64,000 bases of DNA from an uncultured Gammaproteobacteria bacterium. Lineage in GTDB: Bacteria > Pseudomonadota > Gammaproteobacteria > SZUA-229. Positions within the stretch are counted from its first letter, which is position 1; each line of letters starts with the position of its first letter. The stretch spans positions 6,309-70,308 of the forward strand of contig CAWEEC010000092.1 of NCBI GenBank assembly GCA_963807785.1. The letters run 5' to 3'. The notes under the pieces are model-generated. The model worked only from the letters and a program-made list of their open reading frames with translations, was not told the DNA's origin and did not search any database. The position numbers and the translations under genes are program-made. Of the stretch, positions 1 to 12,842 are shown in pieces.

Positions 1-365
1 GCAAGGTAAATCATGTAATCAACCGCCAACTTCACCTCTTCATCGTTCAAATCATCATTACCGCCGCGTGCCGGCATCATGCTGTAATCAGGCCCGATAA
101 AACCATTGATCGCATGTTCATAAAGAACCTGTTTACCTTTAATTAACCTGAAGCTCCATTCTTCCGGCCGCATGGGTATAGGTGCATCCGCAACCCCATA
201 GCCATGACAGGGCTCACAGTTTTGCAGCCAGAGCTCACGTCCCTGTGAGATGCTTTGCTCTTTTGATGTGATATATCTCACATCTGCATAAATCGGAGAC
301 ATGATTAATGACCCGATAAAACTCAATGCAGTGGCTGTGATTAATGCCTGCACGACAAAAGCCAT
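1..365 (-). CDS. class I c-type cytochrome (c5-like), 3' end runs off the window
   Basis: Hand translation of the minus strand from ATG 365..363: hydrophobic signal-like N-terminus, single CEPCH haem motif, then MMPARGG...EEVKLAVDYM typical of cytochrome c5. No stop before position 1. The ATG overlaps the TGA of the upstream ORF (TGATG). Confidence 0.75.
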   Translation of the reverse strand, partial: MAFVVQALITATALSFIGSLIMSPIYADVRYITSKEQSISQGRELWLQNCEPCHGYGVADAPIPMRPEEWSFRLIKGKQVLYEHAINGFIGPDYSMMPARGGNDDLNDEEVKLAVDYMIYL

Positions 366-970
366 CAGCCTTCGACCGGTATACGTATTACAACGCCGCC
401 CATAACATCACCCAGCTTGAAATCTTTCTTCGGTGTATCCGGGTGCTTGTTATGACAGGACACACATACCGGTGCGACGCCGGTATCGGCATAGATCGCA
501 GTAAAATATGTTTTTCCGCCCAGCTTTTCCGTGGTGTAATAGTTTTTACCTTTATTTTCGGCAACGTATTTCAAGCCTGCTTTTTCGGCATCCGTTTTTG
601 GTGCATTCTGTTTATTGATTGGCCACATGGATTGCAATGTATAACTGAAATCGACATCATCCAGTTTTTCTGCACGTTTCATTGCCAGCTCAGAGCCAAA
701 CCTGAACATCTGCGCCGGCAGTACCAGTGCCTTATCGTCTTCAAAATGCTCGGACGCCTTGATGACCTTCTCTTTCTTTACAAGCCTGTTTACAATTTTT
801 TTGGTGTATACAGACCGGTCTGAATCCATGACCAGATGCAGAGCATCTGCCATCGCTTTCACCGAAACAGTAGCATTGGTTACCGGTTCACTGGCTATCG
901 ATACGCCTGCTATGGCTATTGATGCTGCTGCAATTACACCAACAGCTGTCTTTACTTTCATCGTCTTCAT
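365..970 (-). CDS. secreted DUF3365 (Tll0287-like) haem-c domain protein
   Basis: 201 aa with a signal peptide (MKTMKVKTAVGVIAAASIAIAG) and a single C-terminal CVSCH motif followed by DFKLGDVMGGVVIRIP, as I recall for the DUF3365 family. Translationally coupled to the downstream cytochrome. Confidence 0.65.
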   Translation of the reverse strand: MKTMKVKTAVGVIAAASIAIAGVSIASEPVTNATVSVKAMADALHLVMDSDRSVYTKKIVNRLVKKEKVIKASEHFEDDKALVLPAQMFRFGSELAMKRAEKLDDVDFSYTLQSMWPINKQNAPKTDAEKAGLKYVAENKGKNYYTTEKLGGKTYFTAIYADTGVAPVCVSCHNKHPDTPKKDFKLGDVMGGVVIRIPVEG

Positions 971-1029
971 AGTTACCTCACTTGTTTAAGTAATTAATAG
1001 GGTCGAGTTAAAATTAAAAAATACGTTTA

Positions 1030-2457
1030 CTAGAATCCAAACATATCCGAATCATCATCCTGCTCGGCCGCTTCCTGCTCACGTCTTGCGCTTTCTTTGC
1101 GCGCCAGGTCCATACTCGTAACATGAACTTGAGCCTTGCCATTAAAATTGCTCTCTATGAGTGACACATCAGCCAGGGCATCAAGGGTATATTCCAGGCC
1201 GTGACAATGCAGGCAGGATGAGCGAATCATCTTTGAATTTGGCGAGAGGCTGGCACTCTGGTTATGATCTACAATGATGCGACTCATCCATTCGCTAACA
1301 TCATAATTAAACCGCGGCATGTGGCAGCTCGCGCAAGACACACCAGTGTTCTGCGCAGACTCTCCACTGGTTTCTTTTCGCCAAAGCTGATAATGCGAAG
1401 AATCCTTATAGGAAATACTGTGCTTATCTTCATGGCAACCCAGGCATGCTTCTACAGCTGCCTGTTGCACATTAAAACTGTGTGCACCATGGCAGCTGAC
1501 ACAGTTCAGCTCAAGATGGCCTGAATCTTTTTTCATCGGCAGCAGCGACAGTGCAGGAGTCATCGGGGACAGCCCTTGCTGCAGGCGCATTCCATGCTTA
1601 CCTTCCATGAAACGACTTACCTCAACACCATGACAACTCTCGCATACAGTATGATCAGGGTGGTCGTCCCATTGTGCCGGCTCATCATCAACTTGCTGTG
1701 CCATGTGACAAGCACTGCAGTTGACTCCCGAGCGGGCGTGCGCAGTTTCAAGCCACTGCATTTTTATGTCTGTGTCTACAGTTAACCTGTCGCTGGCATC
1801 GATATCGTTTTCATCCAGCCGCTCAACGGGGTATTTTTCCCGTGGGTATTCAACTATTTCATCCAGCAAAGCTGCAAACTCTTTTGCCGGTAAACTCATT
1901 TCCTCAAGCAATGGGGGTTCATTCAAATGCTTGATCAAAAAATCTGTATAGAGCGCGCGGTTATTATGAAAATTATGGCAGCCAGAGTCCTTGCAGGTTT
2001 CAAAGCCCATGCCCTGATGAGAAGGCCTGTCTTCTGCAATATCCTGGTGACAGTGAAAACAGACATCGACCGGTTGTGTTAATCCGTCTTTCGCTGTTAT
2101 CTCCGGCTTATGCTCGCTATGACAACTGATACACTGCAATGCATTTATGCTCTCCAGCAATTCCGCGTTTCTCGGATCCTTGAATTTTCTTGCCGGGTGC
2201 GAATCAAATGGTTTAACCCGATCTTTACCATGACAATCCACGCACGCTTGCTGCAGTACTTCACCACCACCAAATGAATCGGTATGGCACGCATCGCAGG
2301 CATCGATTAACTGGTGATGACCGGGTGACAAATCACCAGGCATGAATATCGCTTTGTCAGTATTATCATTCAGCATGGTCATCGCCAGCCATGAGCCCAG
2401 TATGAGTGACAGTAAAACCCACGCGATCCAGTAAACTGCTTTTTGGGTTATAACCAT
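1030..2457 (-). CDS. membrane-anchored multihaem cytochrome c (10 CxxCH plus one CxxxxCH)
   Basis: 475 aa with an N-terminal TM helix (VYWIAWVLLSLILGSWLAMTML). Motifs counted in the translation: CDACH, CVDCH, CISCH, CFHCH, CKDSGCH, CSACH, CESCH, CVSCH, CLGCH, CASCH, CLHCH. No CxxCK motif. Confidence 0.85.
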   Translation of the reverse strand: MVITQKAVYWIAWVLLSLILGSWLAMTMLNDNTDKAIFMPGDLSPGHHQLIDACDACHTDSFGGGEVLQQACVDCHGKDRVKPFDSHPARKFKDPRNAELLESINALQCISCHSEHKPEITAKDGLTQPVDVCFHCHQDIAEDRPSHQGMGFETCKDSGCHNFHNNRALYTDFLIKHLNEPPLLEEMSLPAKEFAALLDEIVEYPREKYPVERLDENDIDASDRLTVDTDIKMQWLETAHARSGVNCSACHMAQQVDDEPAQWDDHPDHTVCESCHGVEVSRFMEGKHGMRLQQGLSPMTPALSLLPMKKDSGHLELNCVSCHGAHSFNVQQAAVEACLGCHEDKHSISYKDSSHYQLWRKETSGESAQNTGVSCASCHMPRFNYDVSEWMSRIIVDHNQSASLSPNSKMIRSSCLHCHGLEYTLDALADVSLIESNFNGKAQVHVTSMDLARKESARREQEAAEQDDDSDMFGF

Positions 2458-2465
2458 GCTGCCGC

Positions 2466-4481
2466 CTAGAAGTAGTAACTTTTAACAACATGGAACCCCA
2501 GCAAAATCGGAATTGGCCAGAACAACACAATATGCAGCAATGTCCATTGACGCCGCTGTTTTTTTGCCAGTGCGGGTGACATTCTGTGCTCAGTCGCAAC
2601 GACAGTGCTCGCGTATGCACCAACAACTGTCAGTACAAGGAAGTTAATCATTAGCAACATATTCAACTCGTTGCCCAGACGAAACCCGGTATGGACAATT
2701 AATGCCACGAGCACACATACTCCCAGCACTGCATGGAAATATCGCCATAGATTAAAATCGCCAAAATCTATTTTGTTAATGCGTTTGCGCAGGGAAATAC
2801 CAAGACCGAGCAACATTAGCCCCAACATGGTGAAGCCACTGATCTGTTTCAATAGCGAGTTTCGCCAGAGCTCATCCCAGCGAATATCAACCTGAACGCT
2901 ATCTGCATAGGGAATACGCCAGATAAAAATGAACAATACAACGAGACACAGGGTGAAGGCTGACATGGCGAGAAGGCTTCGCCACGATCTGGTCGGCTCG
3001 ACACGTATATCTTCACCCAGCAGCTCGGCCAGTAATGGCTTGCATGATCCACATACACTTCCTGCACGTGTTTCGGAAGTAAGGCAGGCTATATTTTCAC
3101 AGCCTGATGTAACGACCTGTGTCAATCGGCCACGTGTGACACCGGTGCAATTGCAGACCACCGCAGCTGCAGGCCATGACACAACATCCATGTCTTCTTC
3201 ATTACCCCACAGATTACCACTGGACTTGAACCGTAGCAGGTGCCAGAAAGCCAGTCTTTTTTTGTTCACAATTGCATCTTGCAGTAATGATGATTCGTGC
3301 CAGTCACCGATAGCTATGGCGCCGATCAGTCGATTACCAAATAAACGAATCTTTCTGTAAATGCCGTGATCTTTTGATGTGTAAATGTATTCCTTGACGC
3401 CACCAGCCGATTCCTCGTCCACGCCTGTTCGACCCGCACTGAACACAGCCTGCTCCATGACTTTCAAACGAGTCGATTCCAGCGAGCCTATATAACGTGA
3501 ATTACCCCCTGACAACCGGTCAGCCAACACTGCAGCCTGCTCCAATCCTGGTTTGACCAGGCCGTAAACATTATTATTATGTTCGGCACATTCGCCGATG
3601 GCATAAACATGCTCATCTGAGGTTTCGAGATAGTCATTAATACGAATCCCTTTATGAAAAGCAATGCCACTATCTCTGGCCAAATCAGAATTGGGTCGAA
3701 TTCCCGCAGCTACAATCACTGTATCACAGGTGATTTCTCTACCACTACGTAAGCTAACTGCCTCTACCCGATTATTCCCCAGCACACTGACGACACTGTC
3801 ACCCAGCTCAACATAAACACCATTTTGCTCGACGTAATCTCTAAGGTAGTTGCCGCCACGCTGATCTAGCTGCTGCATCATCAGCCATTGGTTATGCTCG
3901 ATAACTGTGATTTGAGTATTGTAACGCTGCATCGCTCGAGCTGTTTCCAGCCCCAGCAATCCACCGCCTATAACGACCGTGTGCTGCGATTTCAACCTGC
4001 GAGCAAATAGCGAATCCGCTTCACTCAATGAACGAAAAGTAAATACGCCCTGATAATGAATATTGCCTATTGAAGGTATAAAAGGTCTGGAACCAACAGC
4101 AAGAACAAGATGTGAATAATGTTGTACATTGCCTGATGCGTCCGTAATGGTTCTTGCTACTCTGTCAATCCATTGGACTGCACAATTTAGACGCATTTCG
4201 ATAACAGCATCAGGCTGCACAGGCGTGCCAAGTTCAAGCTCATCCCTGTCTACATCTCCAGCAAGATAGGATGACAACCTTACTCTGTCGTAAGGGTTCC
4301 ACGGCTCACTGCCATATACAACAACCGGGTAGTCGCAAGCCTTTTTCACAAGCTCATTGACAAAGTGCATGCCAACCGGGCCTGCGCCAACAACTACAAT
4401 CGCTTCTTGTTCAAATGGCACATGTGTCTTTGACTCGTCAGTTTCGTCAACATGTTCTATTTGCTGTATTGCTATGCTCAT
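2466..4481 (-). CDS. NirB-type NAD(P)H-dependent flavoprotein with BFD-like [2Fe-2S] domain, fused to a C-terminal 5-TM putative di-haem-b module; no sirohaem domain
   Basis: 671 aa. GxGxxG at aa 31-36 (VVVGAGPVGM) and aa 172-177 (VVIGGGLLGLE). Cys cluster C443/C445...C477/C480 (CNCTG...CGSCKP). About five TM helices in aa 500-671, with His583-x13-His597 and His650-x13-His664 in two of them. Confidence 0.8.
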   Translation of the reverse strand: MSIAIQQIEHVDETDESKTHVPFEQEAIVVVGAGPVGMHFVNELVKKACDYPVVVYGSEPWNPYDRVRLSSYLAGDVDRDELELGTPVQPDAVIEMRLNCAVQWIDRVARTITDASGNVQHYSHLVLAVGSRPFIPSIGNIHYQGVFTFRSLSEADSLFARRLKSQHTVVIGGGLLGLETARAMQRYNTQITVIEHNQWLMMQQLDQRGGNYLRDYVEQNGVYVELGDSVVSVLGNNRVEAVSLRSGREITCDTVIVAAGIRPNSDLARDSGIAFHKGIRINDYLETSDEHVYAIGECAEHNNNVYGLVKPGLEQAAVLADRLSGGNSRYIGSLESTRLKVMEQAVFSAGRTGVDEESAGGVKEYIYTSKDHGIYRKIRLFGNRLIGAIAIGDWHESSLLQDAIVNKKRLAFWHLLRFKSSGNLWGNEEDMDVVSWPAAAVVCNCTGVTRGRLTQVVTSGCENIACLTSETRAGSVCGSCKPLLAELLGEDIRVEPTRSWRSLLAMSAFTLCLVVLFIFIWRIPYADSVQVDIRWDELWRNSLLKQISGFTMLGLMLLGLGISLRKRINKIDFGDFNLWRYFHAVLGVCVLVALIVHTGFRLGNELNMLLMINFLVLTVVGAYASTVVATEHRMSPALAKKQRRQWTLLHIVLFWPIPILLGFHVVKSYYF

Positions 4482-4495
4482 TAATTACCTGTCAC

Positions 4496-4537
4496 AAAAA
4501 AAACGCCCGCACATGATCTTCATCATTTGTGCGAGCG
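4496..4537 (-). terminator. intrinsic terminator inside the 5' leader of the flavoprotein/cytochrome operon (attenuator)
   Basis: Minus-strand RNA CGCUCGCACA-(14 nt, inner UGAU/AUCA pairing)-UGUGCGGGCG followed by U8. The stem is 10 bp with one G-U pair. It ends 15 nt before the ATG at 4481. Confidence 0.75.
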
Positions 4538-4585
4538 CCTCTGCTCATTGACTCTGTACAAAATGTACTAAAGGCCTTCTTTGGC
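4533..4585 (-). promoter_or_regulatory. candidate ANTAR (NasT) target: two hairpins with A-x-x-G hexaloops; the second competes with the leader terminator
   Basis: RNA GGCC-AAAGAA-GGCC (4572..4585) and GAGC-AGAGGC-GCUC (4533..4546). Both loops have A at position 1 and G at position 4. The 3' arm of hairpin 2 is part of the 5' arm of the terminator. Stems are only 4 bp and the linker is ~25 nt. Confidence 0.5.
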
Positions 4586-4614
4586 CAGAGCTATATTAAA
4601 GATTGCAATTAAAC

Positions 4615-4630
4615 TAGCATTTAGCGTGCC
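4615..4630 (-). promoter_or_regulatory. sigma-54 (-24/-12) promoter of the flavoprotein/cytochrome operon
   Basis: The minus strand reads TGGCACGCTAAATGCT. GG and GC have canonical spacing (consensus TGGCAC-N5-TTGCA). It lies ~135-150 nt upstream of the ATG at 4481. Confidence 0.75.
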
Positions 4631-4720
4631 AATCTTTTTTTATATATCTCCTTGATAATTTATTGAAACATCATCGTACTTACCTTTAAGGCACCAAGTT
4701 GGAACAGACGCATGAGCGGT

Positions 4721-4737
4721 TGCACTGCTATTGTGCC
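4721..4737. promoter_or_regulatory. NtrC-type enhancer site
   Basis: TGCACTGCTATTGTGCC has the GCAC-N7-GTGC spacing of TGCACC-N5-GGTGCA, ~95-110 nt upstream of the sigma-54 promoter. A weaker half-site lies at 4690..4706. Confidence 0.6.
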
Positions 4738-5222
4738 TAACATGTGATTTCATCTACTCTTAAAAGAAATTCATCGAAATTTATATAATGGCTTCCATCA
4801 CAGGAAAAATTCAACCCGACCATACCGTTTACGATATTCAATGATCCGGAGCGTAAGTATATTTGTGGATCCTTCAATCGAAGGTGTTTGAACTTTTCGA
4901 GTATCGGTGTAATGCTTTCGGGATTTATTACTGCATCTCGCGCATATTTTTTCAACGGGTAGACATTATAGTTATCGAGTTTAAGAAACTCGTCTTTCAC
5001 ATGTACTCTATATCTGAGCGGATCATCGATTAGCCATAAAGTCACTTGACCACTTGAAAAATGCACTTTTGCATGAAACACACCGTAATTGCATATGAGA
5101 TCAGCAACACGCGCAAGGACTTCGTCCAGGTGTTGATCAAACTCATTTAATTTACGTTCCTGATGAAAAAGAAACTCCCGTATTGATGGATCACCTCGAA
5201 TTTGTATCCAGTCGTTAGGCAT
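4737..5222 (-). CDS. hypothetical protein (161 aa), no family recognised
   Basis: Long ORF with a strong SD (GGGAGGG, 4 nt before the ATG), 52 nt downstream of nasT on the same strand. No TM helix, signal peptide or motif recognised. Confidence 0.6.
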   Translation of the reverse strand: MPNDWIQIRGDPSIREFLFHQERKLNEFDQHLDEVLARVADLICNYGVFHAKVHFSSGQVTLWLIDDPLRYRVHVKDEFLKLDNYNVYPLKKYARDAVINPESITPILEKFKHLRLKDPQIYLRSGSLNIVNGMVGLNFSCDGSHYINFDEFLLRVDEITC

Positions 5223-5274: not shown

Positions 5275-5847
5275 TTATACTAGTACTTCAGATGCAGATA
5301 TGATCTGCTCAGCGATCTCCCCCATACGTTTATTATGATTCATTGCCAGTTTCCGCATTGCATTATATGCCTGATCCTCACTCAGGCTTTTTGATTTCAT
5401 TATGATACCCTTGGCTTTCTCTACACGCTTGCGTTCCTGTAGTGCATTTTTTGTTTGCCATAACTCTTTTTTAAGTTTCTGTTGTTCCTGAAAACGCGCC
5501 CTGGCTACACCCAGTAGTGTGACCAGACGCTCTGGATCATTACAATCTACAACATAGGCTGTCGCCCCGGCCTTTACCGCGGCATCAATCGAATCGTGTT
5601 GTGAGTCACGGGTAAAGACAAGCATTGGCGTTGGCCGCCTCTCTGAAATTGCCTTCATTTCACGCAATATCGGCTGGTCTATTTCATCACTGACGATTAT
5701 CATCGCATCCGGGCGCAGTGATTCAACATACTTGCTGGCTTGATCATTTGGTCCGATTAGTTTCAGCAGGCGATAGCCGGCCCTGGACGCAGCACGCAGC
5801 AGCGGCTGCGAACTGTTCAGACAATCAGCAACAAGAATCAGATCCAT
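5275..5847 (-). CDS. nasT: ANTAR-domain antitermination regulator, NasT/AmiR type
   Basis: 190 aa: N-terminal receiver-like domain, coiled linker, and a C-terminal ANTAR signature (ERKRVEKAKGIIMKSKSLSEDQAYNAMRKLAMNHNKRMGEIAEQII). Confidence 0.85.
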   Translation of the reverse strand: MDLILVADCLNSSQPLLRAASRAGYRLLKLIGPNDQASKYVESLRPDAMIIVSDEIDQPILREMKAISERRPTPMLVFTRDSQHDSIDAAVKAGATAYVVDCNDPERLVTLLGVARARFQEQQKLKKELWQTKNALQERKRVEKAKGIIMKSKSLSEDQAYNAMRKLAMNHNKRMGEIAEQIISASEVLV

Positions 5848-5882: not shown

Positions 5883-5898
5883 TGCAATATATATGCCA
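5883..5898 (-). promoter_or_regulatory. sigma-54 promoter of nasT
   Basis: The minus strand reads TGGCATATATATTGCA with canonical GG/GC spacing, 36-51 nt upstream of the ATG at 5847. Confidence 0.7.
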
Positions 5899-6003
5899 TC
5901 AGAACGAACAGCTTTAACCGCTTGAAAATGCATAGGAGCTAACTTTCTATATAGAGGACTTCATCAATCCTGTGAAACCGCTTGGTGCACTAGCTGCAGT
6001 CAT

Positions 6004-7812: not shown

Positions 7813-7829
7813 CGCACCATTTTGATGCA
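7813..7829. promoter_or_regulatory. NtrC enhancer site 1 upstream of glnA
   Basis: CGCACCATTTTGATGCA. The left half is perfect; the right half is ATGC instead of GTGC. Confidence 0.55.
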
Positions 7830-7920: not shown

Positions 7921-7936
7921 TGGCACAATTCATGCA
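7921..7936 (+). promoter_or_regulatory. sigma-54 promoter of glnA (glnAp2-type)
   Basis: TGGCACAATTCATGCA with canonical GG/GC spacing, ~95 nt upstream of the ATG at 8031. Confidence 0.8.
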
Positions 7937-8030
7937 GAATACCGCATTACTAAGATTAGCCCCGTCGCTAACACTTGTTCGTTGATTAGTGGCGGAAAAT
8001 TCATTCCATAATATTCTGGAGAGTAAACAA

Positions 8031-9440
8031 ATGTCTGCAAGTGACGTTTTAAAAATGATCAAGGAAAAAGACGTTAAATTCGTTGATTTCCGCTTTACTG
8101 ACACCCAGGGCAAGGAACAGCATGTATCCGTACCTTCCCATACTATCGATGAAGATGTACTCAGCGAAGGTAAAATGTTCGATGGTTCATCAATCCAGGG
8201 CTGGAAAGGTATTAACGAATCAGACATGATTTTGATGCCAGACTGCGAATCACAGGTAATTGACCCCTTCTGCGAGGAAGTAACCATGAACCTGCGTTGC
8301 GATATTGTCGAACCGACAAATATGCAAGGTTACAACCGTGATCCTCGTTCCATTGCCAATCGTGCTGAGGCTTATCTGAAATCAACCGGCATCGGTGATA
8401 TCGCTTACTTTGGCCCCGAGAATGAATTTTTCGTCTTCGATGGCGCTAAATGGGGTGATGAAATGGGTGGCGTTTTCTACGCGATCGAATCCGAAGAAGC
8501 AGCCTGGAACACCGGCAAGGACTATGATGGCAACAATATGGGTCACCGCCCGGGCGTAAAAGGCGGTTACTTTCCTGTTCCCCCTATCGATTCACTGCAG
8601 GACCTGCGCTCCACCATGTGCCTGACCATGGAAGAAATGGGCTGTGAAACAGAAGTGCATCACCACGAAGTGGGTACCGCTGGCCAGTGCGAAATCGGTG
8701 CGTTGTTCAACACCATGGTTCGCAAGGCCGACGAAGTCCAGATCTACAAATATGTTGTACACAATGTCGCGCATGCATTTGGCAAAACAGCGACGTTTAT
8801 GCCAAAACCGATGGTAGGCGATAACGGCAACGGCATGCACGTTCACCAGTCAATCTCGAAAGATGGAGAAAACATTTTCTCAGGCGACCTGTATGGCGGC
8901 CTGTCGGAAACAGCCCTTTACTATATCGGCGGCATCATCAAACATGCCAAGGCATTGAATGCCTTTGCCAACGCTTCTACCAACAGTTACAAGCGCCTGG
9001 TACCGGGCTTCGAAGCACCGGTAATGCTGGCCTATTCCGCACGTAACCGTTCTGCATCGATTCGTATTCCACACGTGTCGAACCCGAAAGCACGTCGTGT
9101 TGAAATCCGATTCCCGGATTCAACGGCCAACCCATACCTGTGCTTTGCCGCTATGCTAATGGCAGGTCTTGACGGTATTCAGAACAAACTGCATCCGGGC
9201 GAAGCACTGGATAAGGACCTGTATGATCTGCCGCCTGAAGAAGAAGCGGCTATTCCACAGGTTGCTTTCTCGTTTGACGAAGCATTGAAAGCACTCGATG
9301 CAGACCGTGCCTTCCTCACTGCCGGCGGTGTATTTGATGATGACGTGATCAATGGTTACATCAAGCTCAAACAGGCCGAGGTGCAACGTTATCGTGCTGC
9401 TGTTCATCCCTGTGAATTCGATATGTACTACAGCGTTTAA
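8031..9440 (+). CDS. glnA: glutamine synthetase type I
   Basis: Full-length GSI ([24 protein letters not shown]..., NGSGMH-type region, adenylylation-loop region). I prefer ATG 8031, preceded by GGAGAG, over the GTG 7989 listed in the ORF track. Confidence 0.97.
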
Positions 9441-9463
9441 CTGCTACATATCTTCGCAAACAG

Positions 9464-9490
9464 AGCCCCGCAATCGCGGGGCTTTTTTTT
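9464..9490 (+). terminator. rho-independent terminator after glnA
   Basis: AGCCCCGC-AATC-GCGGGGCT followed by T8. Confidence 0.9.
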
Positions 9491-9570
9491 GCACAATGTG
9501 AACTTGTCTGTAAATTACCTTACCAAAACAATTAGTTGAACTTGCCTGTAACTAAGACTAAGCTCATGGC

Positions 9571-10143
9571 ATGAACTTGAAATACACTATCCTGATGCTG
9601 GCTTCAACAGCAATGATTTATGCCGCTAGCGCTGATGCCCGGTTTTACAAAAGCGTGGATGCAGAAGGTAATATCGTCTATTCCGATACACCAACGCCGG
9701 GCGCAGAACAACTTACACCACCACCAATTTCGACGGTTGAAGGCCGGCCTGTAGCCAAAGACACCAGCAATGAAGCACAAACCAGCGATGAGGCTGCGAC
9801 TGAAGAACCGAGTAAAAAGCCGCCGACCAGGTACACAAAATTCAGTATCGTGCAGCCCGTCAAAGATGACACCATCTGGAGCAACAACGGTGCGGTACCG
9901 GTGTCGCTGAAACTTGAACCTCCCCTGGATACCGAAAACGGCCACAGTATCTGGGTTTATGTCGATGGCAAGGCTGTGGTCAGAAAGAGTCAGAGCCTGG
10001 TACAGCCATTGTCCGGAATCGACCGCGGCACGCACAGAATTCGGGCTGAAATCAGGGATGAAAAGCGCAAGACCCTGAAACGCACCAGTGATGTGACGAT
10101 TTACCTGAAGCGCGTTTCCGCCATACCCCGCAGCGGCCCCTGA
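9571..10143 (+). CDS. DUF4124-domain secreted protein
   Basis: Signal peptide followed by FYKSVDAEGNIVYSDTP, the DUF4124 signature as I recall it. It lies between glnA and ntrB, a position I recall as common in other gammaproteobacteria. Confidence 0.7.
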   Translation: MNLKYTILMLASTAMIYAASADARFYKSVDAEGNIVYSDTPTPGAEQLTPPPISTVEGRPVAKDTSNEAQTSDEAATEEPSKKPPTRYTKFSIVQPVKDDTIWSNNGAVPVSLKLEPPLDTENGHSIWVYVDGKAVVRKSQSLVQPLSGIDRGTHRIRAEIRDEKRKTLKRTSDVTIYLKRVSAIPRSGP

Positions 10144-10203
10144 CGGCTCAACAGGCTTTACTAACCACGTCGATCACTAACCTTCATTATAAATAGTCAC
10201 CTG

Positions 10204-10227
10204 CGCACCAAATTGGTGCGTTATAAT
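10204..10227. promoter_or_regulatory. perfect NtrC palindrome abutting a TATAAT box upstream of ntrB
   Basis: CGCACCAAATTGGTGCG (10204..10220) is a perfect 17-bp palindrome. TATAAT follows at 10222..10227, the layout of an NtrC-repressed sigma-70 glnL promoter. Confidence 0.6.
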
Positions 10228-10387
10228 CCCTGTTACAGTCATAAAGCTGTCAAATTACCCTGAAACGAGCTCTAAAACCACGGTGACAATATCGTAAGTC
10301 ACTGTTATTCAGAACTATTTTTCAATATTTAACTGATTTCATATTGAATTCCGAGAATTGGTTCGATACTTGCAAATAGCAATAACG

Positions 10388-11446
10388 ATGAGCGACACAA
10401 ATCCGTTACAAGCCATTCTGGACAACCTGCATTCTGCGGTACTGGTCATAAATCAGGACCTCGGCATTGAGTGCATGAATCCCTCAGCCGAGCATCTGTT
10501 CCAGATCAGTAACAAACGCGCCCTGAAGCGCTCGATCAAGGACCTGATTCCTGATAAACCTGAATTTCATGATCGACTGAGCCGCTCAATTATTTCGGGT
10601 CACCCGTTTACGGTGTACGACATCAGCATGCAAAGCCATGACGGCACTATCATCAATGCTGACTATTCGGTTTCTCCAATTGCTTACAAAGCGAACGGTA
10701 GATACCTGTTGCTCGAATTTACCCGCCTGGGCAGTTTGATGCGAATTTCAAAAGAAGAAACCTTGTTGCACCAGCACGAGGCAACCAAAAGCCTGCTTCG
10801 AGGTCTTGCCCACGAGATCAAAAATCCGCTTGGTGGCATTCGCGGGTCTGCACAGTTACTCGACAGAGAGCTGGATGAAGAAGGCAAACAATTCACCGGC
10901 ATAATCATTCGTGAAGCTGATCGTCTTCAGAACCTGGTAGATCGAATGCTTGGACCCAAGAATTTACCGGTAAAAGGTAAGCTTAATATACATAAGGTAC
11001 TGGAACATGTTCGCCAGCTTGTTCAGGCCGAAGCCAAGTCAATTACATTTATCGCGGATTATGACCCGAGCCTTCCAGATCTTCATGCAGATGAATCCAT
11101 GCTGATACAGGCATTGTTGAATATCGCCAGAAATGCGGTTGCCGCACTCAGTGGTGAAGGTCAGGTAACATTACGTACACGGTCACGACGAAACTGCGCA
11201 ATAAGATCTCACATTTACCCACTGCTTGCCCAGATTGACATTATCGATAATGGTGAAGGCATACCTGAAGACCTCGCTGAAACACTTTTCTTTCCCATGG
11301 TCACTGGTCGGGCTGAGGGCACCGGCCTTGGTCTATCCATTGCGCAGTCATTGATACAACAACACAACGGCCTGATTGAATTTACCAGTAAGCCGAATGA
11401 GACATGTTTCACTATTTTAATACCTTTGGAGAATGGCCATGACTGA
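10388..11446 (+). CDS. glnL: nitrogen regulation sensor histidine kinase NtrB
   Basis: PAS N-terminus, H-box LAHEIKNPLGGIRG, N-box NIARNA, DNGEGIP, GTGLGLSIA. I prefer ATG 10388 over the TTG 10358 in the ORF track. Confidence 0.93.
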   Translation: MSDTNPLQAILDNLHSAVLVINQDLGIECMNPSAEHLFQISNKRALKRSIKDLIPDKPEFHDRLSRSIISGHPFTVYDISMQSHDGTIINADYSVSPIAYKANGRYLLLEFTRLGSLMRISKEETLLHQHEATKSLLRGLAHEIKNPLGGIRGSAQLLDRELDEEGKQFTGIIIREADRLQNLVDRMLGPKNLPVKGKLNIHKVLEHVRQLVQAEAKSITFIADYDPSLPDLHADESMLIQALLNIARNAVAALSGEGQVTLRTRSRRNCAIRSHIYPLLAQIDIIDNGEGIPEDLAETLFFPMVTGRAEGTGLGLSIAQSLIQQHNGLIEFTSKPNETCFTILIPLENGHD

Positions 11447-12842
11447 CGAACGTCATATCTGGATCATCGATGATGACGATTCGATACGTTTCGTTTTACA
11501 AAAAGCGCTGGAAAATGCCAACATGCAGGTCACCAGTTTCGATAGCGCCAACAATATTCTGGACAGGCTGCAACTGGGCGAGCCTGATGCCATCATTACC
11601 GACGTTCGCATGCCTGGTATGGATGGCCTTGAATTACTCTCAAAATTGTCTGATCAGTATCCAACATTACCGGTCATAATCATGACCGCTCACACTGATC
11701 TCGACAGTGCCGTATCTGCTTATCAGGGAGGCGCATTCGAGTATTTACCCAAACCATTCGACATTGATGATGCTGTCGAGCTTGCGCAACGTGCCAGTGA
11801 CCGTCATAAGGAGCAATTACACAGCGTGTCTGATATCACCTCAGACACGCCTGAAATTATTGGCGAAGCGCCATCCATGCAGGAAGTATTTCGCGCTATT
11901 GGTCGTTTATCCAAATCGAACATAAATGTATTAATCACTGGCGAATCCGGAACGGGTAAAGAACTTGTTGCACTTTCGCTACACAGACACAGTCCGCGTG
12001 CACAGCAATCGTTTATTGCTATAAATACTGCTGCGATACCAAAAGAGTTGCTTGAATCAGAATTGTTTGGTCATGAAAAAGGCGCATTCACAGGAGCGCA
12101 ATCACTCAGACATGGCCGTTTTGAACAGGCTGATGGGGGCACCCTGTTCCTCGATGAAATAGGTGACATGCCGGCAGAATTGCAAACTCGATTACTACGA
12201 GTGTTATCCGATGGCGAATTTTATCGCGTTGGCGGACATACTCCAATCAAGGTCGATGTACGTGTTATTGCTGCAACTCACCAGAACCTTGAACAAAATG
12301 TTAAAAAGGGGCTTTTTCGTGAGGACCTGTTTCATCGGCTTAATGTCATTCGAATCCAGCTACCTTCATTACGAGAAAGGCGTGAAGATATTCCTGCATT
12401 ACTCAGGCTGTTCATGGAGAGGGCGATAAAAGAGCTTGAGGTCGAACAAAAAACAATTTTGCCAGAAGTTGAAGACTACCTTTCGACTCTGGAGTGGCCA
12501 GGCAATGTAAGACAACTCGAAAACACATGCCACTGGCTTGCAGTGATGACTTCCGGACAAACCATTCATATGTCCGATCTACCACACGAATTGCAACCTG
12601 ATATCGGCAAACAGACCGAATCATCTGCACCTAACTGGCAGGATGGACTATCTAACTGGTGTCAGCAACAGCTGGCATCTGGCAACAGGGGAATCGCGGA
12701 GCAGGTGATTACAGAAGTTGAAATGATACTGATCAAGGTTGCATTAAATAAAACTGGCGGGCGCAGGAATGATGCAGCAAATCTGCTCGGTTGGGGAAGA
12801 AACACGCTAACAAGAAAAATCAAGGAACGCGATATCGATTGA
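11433..12842 (+). CDS. glnG: nitrogen regulation response regulator NtrC (sigma-54 activator)
   Basis: REC domain ([12 protein letters not shown]...DVRMPGMDG), AAA+ domain with GESGTGKE and GAFTGA, and a C-terminal Fis-type HTH. Overlaps ntrB by 14 nt. Confidence 0.95.

Follow-up and report, generated by a model that had tools for sequence, protein, structure and literature searches.

Bacterial periplasmic redox enzymes are normally supplied with electrons from the quinone pool. Other electrons leave the cytoplasm through membrane proteins marked by the ferric reductase domain (FRD) motif, in which two pairs of His residues, spaced 13 (or 12) residues apart, lie on two transmembrane (TM) helices that are one helix apart. 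This motif is also supported by a published account (PMC3591440). A DUF4405 protein has been purified with haem b bound through four central conserved His residues (PMC11334425). In Bradyrhizobium japonicum, the globin Bjgb and the flavoprotein Flp are outlined as acting against nitric oxide (NO) that arises as a by-product of nitrate assimilation, with Flp proposed as the Bjgb reductase (PMC4724949). Here we describe an operon from an uncultured Gammaproteobacteria bacterium of the SZUA-229 lineage (assembly GCA_963807785.1, contig CAWEEC010000092.1, positions 6,309 to 70,308 of the forward strand); this whole stretch of 64,000 nucleotides is referred to as the window, and its positions are used throughout. 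The first gene of the operon encodes a protein in which a NirB-type flavoprotein is fused to a BFD-type [2Fe-2S] domain and to a five-helix membrane module that would hold two haems b, and the genes behind it encode c-type haem proteins, all on the minus strand. We consider it probable that the locus is part of the nitrate-assimilation regulon and specifies an electron conduit across the membrane that does without quinones.

A NirB-type flavoprotein fused to a membrane module

The fusion gene occupies positions 2466 to 4481, and its product of 671 amino acids (aa) was resolved by Pfam and AlphaFold2 into a NirB-type flavoprotein, a BFD [2Fe-2S] domain and a putative di-haem b module of five TM helices. 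The Pfam scan placed a flavin adenine dinucleotide (FAD)/NAD(P)H domain with two dinucleotide-binding motifs at aa 28-307 (positions 3561 to 4400; Pyr_redox_2, E 6e-54), a Rubredoxin_C-type reductase C-terminal domain at aa 336-407 (3261 to 3476; PF18267, E 7e-15) and a BFD-like [2Fe-2S] domain at aa 441-489 (3015 to 3161; Fer2_BFD, E 1e-8, 35.7 bits against a cut-off of 26), and found neither of the sirohaem/[4Fe-4S] domains, NIR_SIR and NIR_SIR_ferr, in the protein. The NCBIfam model of NirB (TIGR02374) aligned over model positions 1-480 of 794 with a score of 374.5 bits against a cut-off of 578.35 bits (E 1e-111). The open reading frame call, Pfam and NCBIfam together reproduced the claim of a preliminary description, made from the nucleotide sequence alone, that the 671-aa product combines FAD/NAD(P)H and BFD modules and has no sirohaem domain. 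The fusion carries the FAD/NAD(P)H region and the four-Cys BFD domain of NirB, falls short of the full-length model and, as far as these matches tell, resembles NirB only in the half that takes in electrons.

A homologue search gave over 100 full-length proteins of about 660-690 aa, mostly from gammaproteobacterial metagenomes; Cupriavidus necator, Noviherbaspirillum and Piscinibacter have members with about 50% identity. In an alignment of 44 homologues, with identity down to 47%, the BFD cysteines C443, C445, C477 and C480, the glycines of both dinucleotide motifs (G32/G34/G37 and G172-G177), E195 and the RKR loop are invariant. The acidic E195, which closes the second strand of the NAD-binding fold, hints at a preference for NADH; an acidic residue at a position of this type is a general indicator of NADH use in Rossmann folds. 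A homologue from a planctomycete of the Pirellulaceae, 36% identical to the fusion, has the glycine motifs, the BFD cysteines and the four His residues of the membrane module described below. AlphaFold2 modelled the full-length fusion with a pLDDT of 81.

The possibility that the gene is a truncated or degenerate nirB was ruled out by the length of the homologues and by the retention of the TM module in hundreds of clusters. In databases, members of the family go by the name "FAD-dependent oxidoreductase" or are mistaken for the "nitrite reductase (NADH) large subunit", the label that the JGI and NCBI pipelines give them. A scan of genome contigs with the full-length fusion alignment, which drew on FAD-domain peptides, returned mostly ordinary NirB-type loci, the fusion being encoded at 3 of 80.

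The membrane module and its four conserved histidines

The C-terminal membrane module (aa 500-670, positions 2472 to 2984) was delimited by hydropathy and AlphaFold2. Hydrophobic segments were found at aa 502-520, 546-564, 582-600, 610-628 and 648-666, and the loops 565-575 and 630-644 are rich in Lys and Arg, which by the positive-inside rule indicates an N-in/C-out topology. AlphaFold2 returned five long helices matching the hydrophobic segments, and a model of the TM region only reached a pLDDT of 84.9 and a pTM of 0.80. The TM region has His residues at positions 583, 597, 632, 650 and 664, and H583/H597 and H650/H664 each form a His-x13-His pair on two helices, TM3 and TM5, that are one helix apart. 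The earlier reading of about five TM helices, two of them bearing these pairs, was thus borne out, and the conservation on which it was to stand or fall was found as well, all four residues being invariant (44/44) and H632 being present in 42 of the 44 homologues.

On the predicted topology, H583 (codon at 2733 to 2735; residue 2 of segment 582-600) and H650 (2532 to 2534; residue 3 of segment 648-666) lie in the cytoplasmic leaflet, and H597 (2691 to 2693; residue 16 of segment 582-600) and H664 (2490 to 2492; residue 17 of segment 648-666) lie in the periplasmic leaflet. These are the depths that would be expected for one haem at each membrane face, and we infer that the pairs H583/H650 and H597/H664 would each bind a haem b. 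With pairs on TM3 and TM5 at matched depths, the fusion shows the His-pair arrangement of the FRD/NOX proteins. Membership in that superfamily was not found by model or fold, as Ferric_reduct (PF01794) matched only 4 of 28 family members (best E 0.0066), and the six TM helices and C-terminal FNR-type domain of the FRD proteins have no counterpart in the fusion, which has five TM helices and an N-terminal Pyr_redox_2 dehydrogenase.

Among 1.84 billion representative proteins (clusters at 50% identity), a profile built from the TM module alone matched 812 clusters with E <= 1e-3, of which 343 had E <= 1e-30. The match was C-terminal in 150 of 150 among the matches listed. Short matches (143-500 aa) were considered as candidates for stand-alone TM proteins; the three that were tested begin inside BFD, Rubredoxin_C or Pyr_redox_2 and are 5'-truncated gene calls. 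When 28 family members were scanned singly against Pfam, DUF4405 was matched by 18 of them (best E 1.8e-5), the other recurring weak matches were to DUF4079, Ni_hydr_CYTB, Ferric_reduct and PepSY_TM, and no consistent match to a non-redox family was found. The comparison of this region with di-haem b carriers in the preliminary description is upheld in that the matches are confined to di-haem cytochrome b families with no non-redox family recurring, and is weakened in that these matches are faint and below threshold.

The undecahaem cytochrome

The gene behind the fusion gene (positions 1030 to 2457) starts after a gap of 8 nt and encodes a membrane-anchored cytochrome c of 475 aa, with a hydrophobic anchor at aa 11-29, modules resembling NrfA and the octahaem nitrite reductases, ten CxxCH motifs and one further motif, CKDSGCH. 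The anchor and the eleven motifs, ten CxxCH and one CxxxxCH, had been read in the same way before, with a gap of 9 nt that is corrected here to 8. All eleven haem motifs are kept in seven orthologues, down to 39% identity.

A profile of the cytochrome searched against PDB sequences matched the octahaem nitrite reductase TvNiR (E 4e-7) and NrfA (E 5e-7). Residues 220-291 of the cytochrome align with TvNiR 5-80, and residues 329-437 align with TvNiR 329-428, a stretch that includes CxxCHMP(R/K)...H.Q...CLxCH; the segment of NrfA haems 1-3 with the catalytic residues could not be aligned to the cytochrome. The family models stay below their cut-offs, with 18.5 against 24.1 bits for Cytochrom_C552 and 19.6 against 595 bits for the NrfA model NF008339, and the DmsE/MtrA decahaem model TIGR03508 scores 40.7 bits against 192.2, which places the protein outside that family too. 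Annotation pipelines label it "NrfA" or "formate-dependent nitrite reductase c552 subunit", names for which the family cut-offs are not passed. These alignments identify the cytochrome as a modular relative of the NrfA and octahaem enzymes that is outside their family. NrfA and octahaem nitrite reductases also reduce NO and hydroxylamine. The undecahaem cytochrome, for its part, may be either catalytic or only a wire.

Variants with another dehydrogenase

The TM module was also found in proteins with a different dehydrogenase (P0252, P0298 and P0365), where it stands C-terminal to two or three cNMP-binding domains or an EF-hand, together with Fer2_BFD and FAD_binding_6/NAD_binding_1 of the FNR type. 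These variants keep the motifs of the TM module, and the FNR-type dehydrogenase is N-terminal to it. Genes for the variant lie on prokaryotic contigs (L092, 6001-10789, and L093, 2187-6939), and directly after them stands a gene for a multihaem cytochrome of 505-517 aa that is an orthologue of the window cytochrome (43% identity, E 2e-131), with the third haem motif deleted and the CxxxxCH motif replaced by CRGACH. No globin gene was found after the cytochrome gene at the FNR-variant loci. A BFD-containing dehydrogenase precedes the TM module in all eight sequences whose domains were checked.

Because the TM module and the cytochrome are kept together with unrelated dehydrogenases, the two appear to be the core unit, and the pairing of two unrelated BFD-bearing NAD(P)H-flavin dehydrogenases with the same cytochrome partner is as expected for a dehydrogenase-to-cytochrome electron module. 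The additional domains suggest that the variants are second-messenger-gated versions of the conduit. The chain from NAD(P)H to periplasmic haem c that had been proposed for the window thereby gains independent support for its architecture from the FNR-type variant with its orthologous cytochrome, and it stays weaker at the TM module, where the Pfam matches are sub-threshold and Foldseek gave none of significance.

Other operon proteins and conservation of the operon

The third gene (positions 365 to 970) encodes a periplasmic haem-c protein of 201 aa of the Tll0287-like type (DUF3365/sCache_haem; PF11845, E 5e-19), as expected from the preliminary description, which had placed a DUF3365 haem protein after the multihaem gene. 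With a score of 69.5 bits against PF11845 (cut-off 24.1) and a CxxCH motif that is invariant in eight orthologues, the protein can be counted as a member of the family. Its hydrophobic N-terminal segment fits a signal peptide. In all eight orthologues, Cys is confined to the CVSCH motif, which leaves no residue for Cys/His axial ligation; in contrast, Tll0287 and the stand-alone protein of P. putida have an axial Cys. The Tll0287-like family has recently been redefined as haem-c Cache domains, and the only Cys-less Cache-haem protein characterised so far binds NO tightly (bioRxiv 10.64898/2026.02.01.703092).

The fourth gene (positions 1 to 365) continues past the window start, and the part seen is the 5' end of a gene for a monohaem class-I cytochrome c (CEPCH), whose ATG overlaps the preceding stop codon. 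The full orthologue of 142 aa at locus L005, a 97%-identical relative, was assigned by Pfam to Cytochrome_CBB3 of the class I group, where the preliminary description had proposed a c5-type cytochrome. At L005, the monohaem gene is followed by a gene for a globin of 140 aa, a three-gene ATP-binding cassette (ABC) transporter and a genuine NirB. The best matches of the globin are single-domain globins of the flavohaemoprotein type (Methylacidiphilum HGb, Vitreoscilla Hb, Hmp). The transporter consists of an NMT1_2 binding protein, a permease and an ATPase, and is read from its components as putatively NrtABC-like.

The operon was compared at 13 NirB-type loci, from gammaproteobacterial metagenome-assembled genomes (MAGs), C. 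necator H16 (H16_B0948-B0951), Noviherbaspirillum, Pseudazoarcus (a short contig) and a Pirellulaceae MAG. The order of fusion, undecahaem cytochrome, Tll0287-like protein, optional monohaem cytochrome c and globin was found at each of the 11 loci whose sequence extends far enough downstream, and two short loci, the window and the contig of L006, agree with it as far as they reach. Going by contigs of identical length, a further 27 contigs apparently occur in the homologue lists of both the fusion and the cytochrome, which is an indirect proxy for the pairing. In the surroundings, nasT lies upstream at six NirB-type loci, NrtABC-like transporter genes are nearby at four, and nirB-nirD-nasA adjoin the operon at two, with L005, whose genuine nirB lies past the transporter genes, as a third.

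Some loci show additional features. At L091, the operon ends with two tandem globin genes (9453-10399, plus strand), and a gene for an NsrR-like Rrf2 regulator (4050-4481, minus strand; 152.9 bits against a cut-off of 182) is divergent from the operon. The genes ccmA-H, instead of nas genes, directly follow the module at L001 (12551-17971; C. necator H16 chromosome 2) and L086 (11829-15974; Noviherbaspirillum).

Nitrogen control of the operon

The region of 255 nt upstream of the fusion gene was examined for regulatory elements. A sigma-54-type promoter, TGGCACGctaaATGCT (TGGCACGCTAAATGCT), lies at positions 4616 to 4631 of the minus strand and is the sole match with one mismatch to TGGCACG-N4-TTGCW in the 64 kb; equivalent sites are present upstream of the orthologues in L005, L004, L087, L006 and L001. 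About 60 bp upstream of it, an NtrC-like site, GGCACCAAGTTGGAACA (4690 to 4706, plus strand), was found with three mismatches and is weak. The GG-N10-GC element and its spacing are thus those of a sigma-54/NtrC promoter, with a weak upstream site.

The leader, on the minus strand, contains two hairpins, each with a hexaloop whose first base is A and whose fourth is G (A1/G4). Hairpin 1 (4573 to 4586) is GGCC-AAAGAA-GGCC, and its counterpart in L005 reads GACC...GGTC, so that both arms have changed with the four pairs kept (one as G-U). Hairpin 2 (4532 to 4547), TGAGC-AGAGGC-GCTCG, overlaps the 5' arm of an intrinsic terminator (4496 to 4542) with a long GC-rich stem and a T8 run, which ends about 15 nt before the start codon. 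The leader was computed to fold with a minimum free energy of -39.6 kcal/mol (z = -5.5). Among ten upstream regions inspected, the window included, seven have the T-run, and hairpins with A1/G4 hexaloops were found at eight of ten loci, with 17 observed against 3.0 +/- 1.8 in shuffles. A search with Rfam at gathering thresholds found nothing in the window; at a permissive threshold, P11 matched 4502-4643 (minus strand) with 15.8 bits against 70 (E 1.5), which is far below threshold and a hint only. P11 is presumably NalA, the leader of Pseudomonas nirBD. For binding, NasT and its ANTAR domain need two hexaloops of this A1/G4 type (PMC10783516), and the leader has both, the second overlapping the terminator. 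The sigma-54/NtrC promoter and ANTAR-type leader that the preliminary description had announced are therefore present, and they are conserved across orthologues.

A gene for a NasT-type ANTAR response regulator (positions 5275 to 5847, minus strand; ANTAR, E 6e-20) lies upstream, at the same position as in L004, L005, L008, L087 and L088. Between it and the operon, a conserved protein of 161 aa is encoded (4737 to 5222, minus strand), which has no match in Pfam or NCBIfam; its sequence shares 50% identity with the C-terminal half of a protein of 323-325 aa that takes this place in L004 and L087, and it may be a part of the NasT circuit.

Expression data are available for the C. necator H16 orthologues, in which RNA-seq of the nitrogen-depleted phase gave log2 fold changes of 4.5, 5.2 and 4.5 for H16_B0948, B0950 and B0951, corresponding to a 22-37-fold induction (PMC3734047). 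Nitrogen-starvation-induced C. necator genes of this kind have been linked to sigma-54 promoters in the same study (PMC3734047). The nitrogen regulation suggested earlier is thus matched by a strong response to nitrogen depletion in an orthologue, and nitrogen control of the operon draws support from sequence, conservation and this experiment.

Further elements of nitrogen control were seen in the vicinity. A sigma-54-like element, TGGCATATATATTGCA (5883-5898, minus strand), and an NtrC-like site (5973-5989) stand upstream of nasT, which may itself be under NtrC control. A few kb from the operon, the window encodes glnA, ntrB (NR-II, 330 bits) and ntrC (NR-I, 723 bits) at 7989-12842 on the plus strand; glnA is preceded by a sigma-54-like site (7921-7936) and NtrC-like sites (one of them at 7813-7829), and ntrB by a near-perfect NtrC palindrome, CGCACCAAATTGGTGCG, at 10204-10220.

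Proposed function and alternative explanations

In the mechanism that we propose, cytoplasmic NAD(P)H, probably NADH, would reduce the FAD of the NirB-type domain, and the electrons would pass to the BFD [2Fe-2S] cluster, then to the haem b held by H583/H650 at the cytoplasmic face and on to that held by H597/H664 at the periplasmic face. The outer haem b would reduce the anchored undecahaem cytochrome c, which would hand electrons to soluble partners, namely the Cys-less Cache-haem protein and the monohaem cytochrome c. At the periplasmic end, reactive nitrogen species would be reduced, with NO as the first candidate, followed by hydroxylamine or nitrite. In the cytoplasm, the globin of the flavohaemoprotein type would remove NO and would plausibly be re-reduced by the fusion flavoprotein, as proposed of Flp for Bjgb. 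Under nitrogen limitation, transcription would start at the NtrC-dependent sigma-54 promoter, and in the presence of nitrate or nitrite, NasT would act on the two A-N-N-G-N-N hexaloop hairpins to allow read-through of the leader terminator. The direction and path of electron flow, and the substrate, are inferred. Electron export of this type would be driven by the membrane potential and would dissipate it, which would suit detoxification or assimilation more than energy conservation. An inward flow, in which a periplasmic oxidation reduces NAD+, was considered and set aside as presumably uphill in redox terms and against the membrane potential.

Several features lead us to favour reactive nitrogen species as the target. 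Periplasmic reduction of NO, hydroxylamine or nitrite is favoured because NirB, joined at two loci by NirD and NasA, and the NrtABC-like genes cover the assimilatory route. The role is further favoured because a globin of the NO-dioxygenase type is always present in the NirB-type operon, because the Cache-haem protein has no Cys outside its haem motif and the sole tested Cys-less member binds NO, because reductases of NO, hydroxylamine and nitrite are among the relatives of the cytochrome, and because the Bradyrhizobium operon offers a precedent for a NasT-controlled NO defence by globin and flavoprotein in a nas operon. The gene for an NsrR-like regulator at L091 points the same way. We regard the NO/reactive-nitrogen-species role, taken by itself, as a tentative assignment with a little less than an even chance; the conduit and this role, combined in one reading, we hold to be slightly on the probable side. 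The preliminary description had suggested a role in nitrogen acquisition; its premise of nitrogen control stands, and primary nitrite acquisition has become less likely, given the flavohaemoprotein-type globin, encoded beyond the window, and, in relatives, the neighbouring genes for NirB (at two loci also NirD and NasA) and the NrtABC-like transporter.

A number of observations weigh against these readings. For the di-haem b module, the window fusion itself scores 17.2-19.4 bits against DUF4405 (PF14358), whose gathering score is 26.7, the TM-module profile gave zero matches to PDB sequences at E <= 10, and a Foldseek search of the TM-only AlphaFold2 model against the PDB gave nothing significant, the best matches being talin helical bundles (E 0.17), DUOX1 (E 0.87, TM-score 0.30) and bc1 cytochrome b (E 2.6). 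For a catalytic role of the cytochrome, the CxxCK motif was not found in it, the region corresponding to NrfA haems 2-3 is missing, and 13 further His residues outside the motifs are invariant in its orthologues, so that every haem could be bis-His ligated and the protein a pure wire. For the assignment to NO, the published stand-alone Cache-haem protein, in which the axial Cys is present, is a redox protein and not an NO binder, and an NsrR-like neighbour was seen at one locus only, with a score below the cut-off. Finally, the induction in C. necator came without added nitrate (PMC3734047), which general nitrogen scavenging would explain no less well than NO defence.

Among the alternatives, the one that survives best is that the conduit serves a periplasmic assimilatory reductase, along the lines of the preliminary description, in which the undecahaem cytochrome is catalytic and converts nitrite, hydroxylamine or another nitrogen oxide to ammonium. 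Such an enzyme would fit the profile match of the cytochrome to octahaem nitrite reductase and NrfA (E ~4e-7), the name "NrfA" that some pipelines give to its orthologues, the NtrC/sigma-54 control with induction by nitrogen depletion alone in C. necator, and the location of the operon in nas clusters. However, cytoplasmic nitrite reduction is already provided for in relatives by NirB (at two loci together with NirD and NasA) and the NrtABC-like transporter next door, the cytochrome has no CxxCK motif and no alignable counterpart of the NrfA haem 1-3 segment with its catalytic residues, the NrfA models score far below their cut-offs, and the conserved globin would be left unexplained; we consider this explanation unlikely.

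A second alternative, which we regard as quite improbable, is that the fusion is a flavoprotein of the Flp kind with cytoplasmic partners (the globin, NasA or both), its membrane part being an anchor or a quinone-reactive cytochrome b and the cytochromes c being tied to the quinone pool. The precedent of Flp and Bjgb, the constant co-encoding of the globin in the NirB-type operons and the weak matches to Ni_hydr_CYTB, a quinone-reactive di-haem b family of the FdnI/HyaC type, would agree with it. Yet the pairing of TM module and cytochrome survives the exchange for an FNR-type dehydrogenase, where no globin gene follows the cytochrome gene, four invariant intramembrane His residues at matched depths would be superfluous in an anchor, and the TM match is C-terminal, behind a BFD-containing dehydrogenase, in the eight domain-checked sequences. 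A NOX- or FRE-like oxidoreductase for periplasmic Fe(III), another metal or O2 (yielding superoxide), co-regulated as nitrate assimilation is iron-demanding, is very improbable. The H-x13-H pairs on two helices one helix apart do have the ferric-reductase-domain arrangement, Ferric_reduct is weakly matched by 4 of 28 members and the EF-hand or cNMP domains of the variants recall NOX5, but neither iron-uptake genes nor a Fur-type context was seen at any locus, the steady partners are nitrogen-related (globin, Cache-haem protein, nas genes and NasT leader), and O2 reduction has no need of an 11-haem cytochrome.

Taking up the preferred reading of a conduit that acts on reactive nitrogen species, a wider proposal can be put forward, possible and rather doubtful as a whole. 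The fusion would represent an undescribed class of transmembrane NAD(P)H oxidoreductase with flavin, [2Fe-2S] and di-haem b that bypasses the quinones and powers a periplasmic undecahaem enzyme, and many Proteobacteria, with some Planctomycetes, would possess it as a standard component of their nitrate-assimilation regulon that has escaped notice. It would convert periplasmic NO, hydroxylamine or nitrite to ammonium or a harmless product, serving both nitrogen salvage and protection, and its TM module would have been independently recruited by cNMP- or Ca2+-gated FNR-type dehydrogenases, making it an electron exporter of general use that can be regulated.

Implications

If the conduit is confirmed, a direct wire from NAD(P)H to the periplasm would be a different energetic solution for periplasmic redox enzymes, one that dissipates membrane potential and is independent of respiration, and it would give the NOX enzymes a new prokaryotic counterpart. 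The module, which brings four haem proteins into the nitrate-assimilation regulon, may account for the handling of NO or hydroxylamine outside the cytoplasm of assimilating cells, with possible consequences for the emission of N2O and NO. The label "nitrite reductase (NADH) large subunit" on a family of 812 clusters can inflate nirB counts in metagenomic surveys of the nitrogen cycle, and the label "NrfA" on the cytochrome is likely to distort gene counts for the nitrogen cycle as well. C. necator H16, with H16_B0948-B0951, is a genetically tractable host of the operon.

Comparison with known systems

The fusion agrees with NirB in its first ~490 residues, in its genomic neighbourhood and in its NasT/sigma-54 control. 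NirB, however, has its own sirohaem/[4Fe-4S] catalytic half, the place of which is taken in the fusion by the membrane module, and a genuine NirB is encoded separately in the close relative L005 (927 bits against the 578-bit cut-off). Compared with NrfA, with five haems, and the octahaem TvNiR/ONR, with eight, the cytochrome has 11 haems, an N-terminal c3-like half and a membrane anchor. The leader resembles NalA of the Pseudomonas nirBD operon, which is antiterminated by NasT (PMC10783516), in its sigma-54 promoter, its two A1/G4 hexaloop hairpins, the second of which competes with an intrinsic terminator, and the adjacent nasT; it differs from NalA in having no recognisable sequence homology and in controlling another operon.

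The Bradyrhizobium japonicum narK-bjgb-flp-nasC operon, as outlined in PMC4724949, likewise combines a single-domain globin of the flavohaemoprotein type with an NAD(P)H flavoprotein in a NasT-controlled nitrate-assimilation operon. That system is cytoplasmic in the description given there, whereas in the window the flavoprotein is built into the membrane and has three periplasmic haem-c proteins beside it.

Full-text literature searched by locus tags, DUF3365, DUF4405 and the combination of NasT, globin and multihaem cytochrome yielded no description of the fusion or the operon, and the published survey of the FRD superfamily says nothing of a fusion of NirB, 2Fe-2S or pyridine-nucleotide type. 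The DUF4405, PepSY-like and MsrQ-like cytochromes b are similar to the TM module as small membrane proteins with four central conserved His residues, and have been proposed as electron carriers across the cytoplasmic membrane to extracytosolic redox proteins (PMC11334425); DUF4405 is also the commonest Pfam match of the module (18/28). In contrast to it, the DUF4405 models have six TM helices, and the partners of these proteins are ApbE-flavinylated, where the TM module has an NAD(P)H dehydrogenase fused to it and a multihaem cytochrome c encoded next to it. With NOX5, DUOX, SpNOX, FRE, MsrQ and YedZ, the fusion shares an NAD(P)H-flavin dehydrogenase joined to a membrane module through which electrons would leave the cytoplasm, His pairs about 13 residues apart on two helices, with one predicted haem b near each face, and, with NOX5 in particular, EF-hand regulatory domains in variants of the family. 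It differs from them in its N-terminal dehydrogenase of the NirB/Pyr_redox_2 type with an additional [2Fe-2S] BFD cluster, in having five TM helices against six, with no significant NOX/DUOX fold match by Foldseek, and in its presumed acceptor, a dedicated multihaem cytochrome c and not O2 or Fe(III). Taken together, these comparisons suggest that what is new at this locus is a transmembrane NAD(P)H-to-haem electron exporter whose composition and regulon appear to be without precedent, within a kind of device that is itself known.

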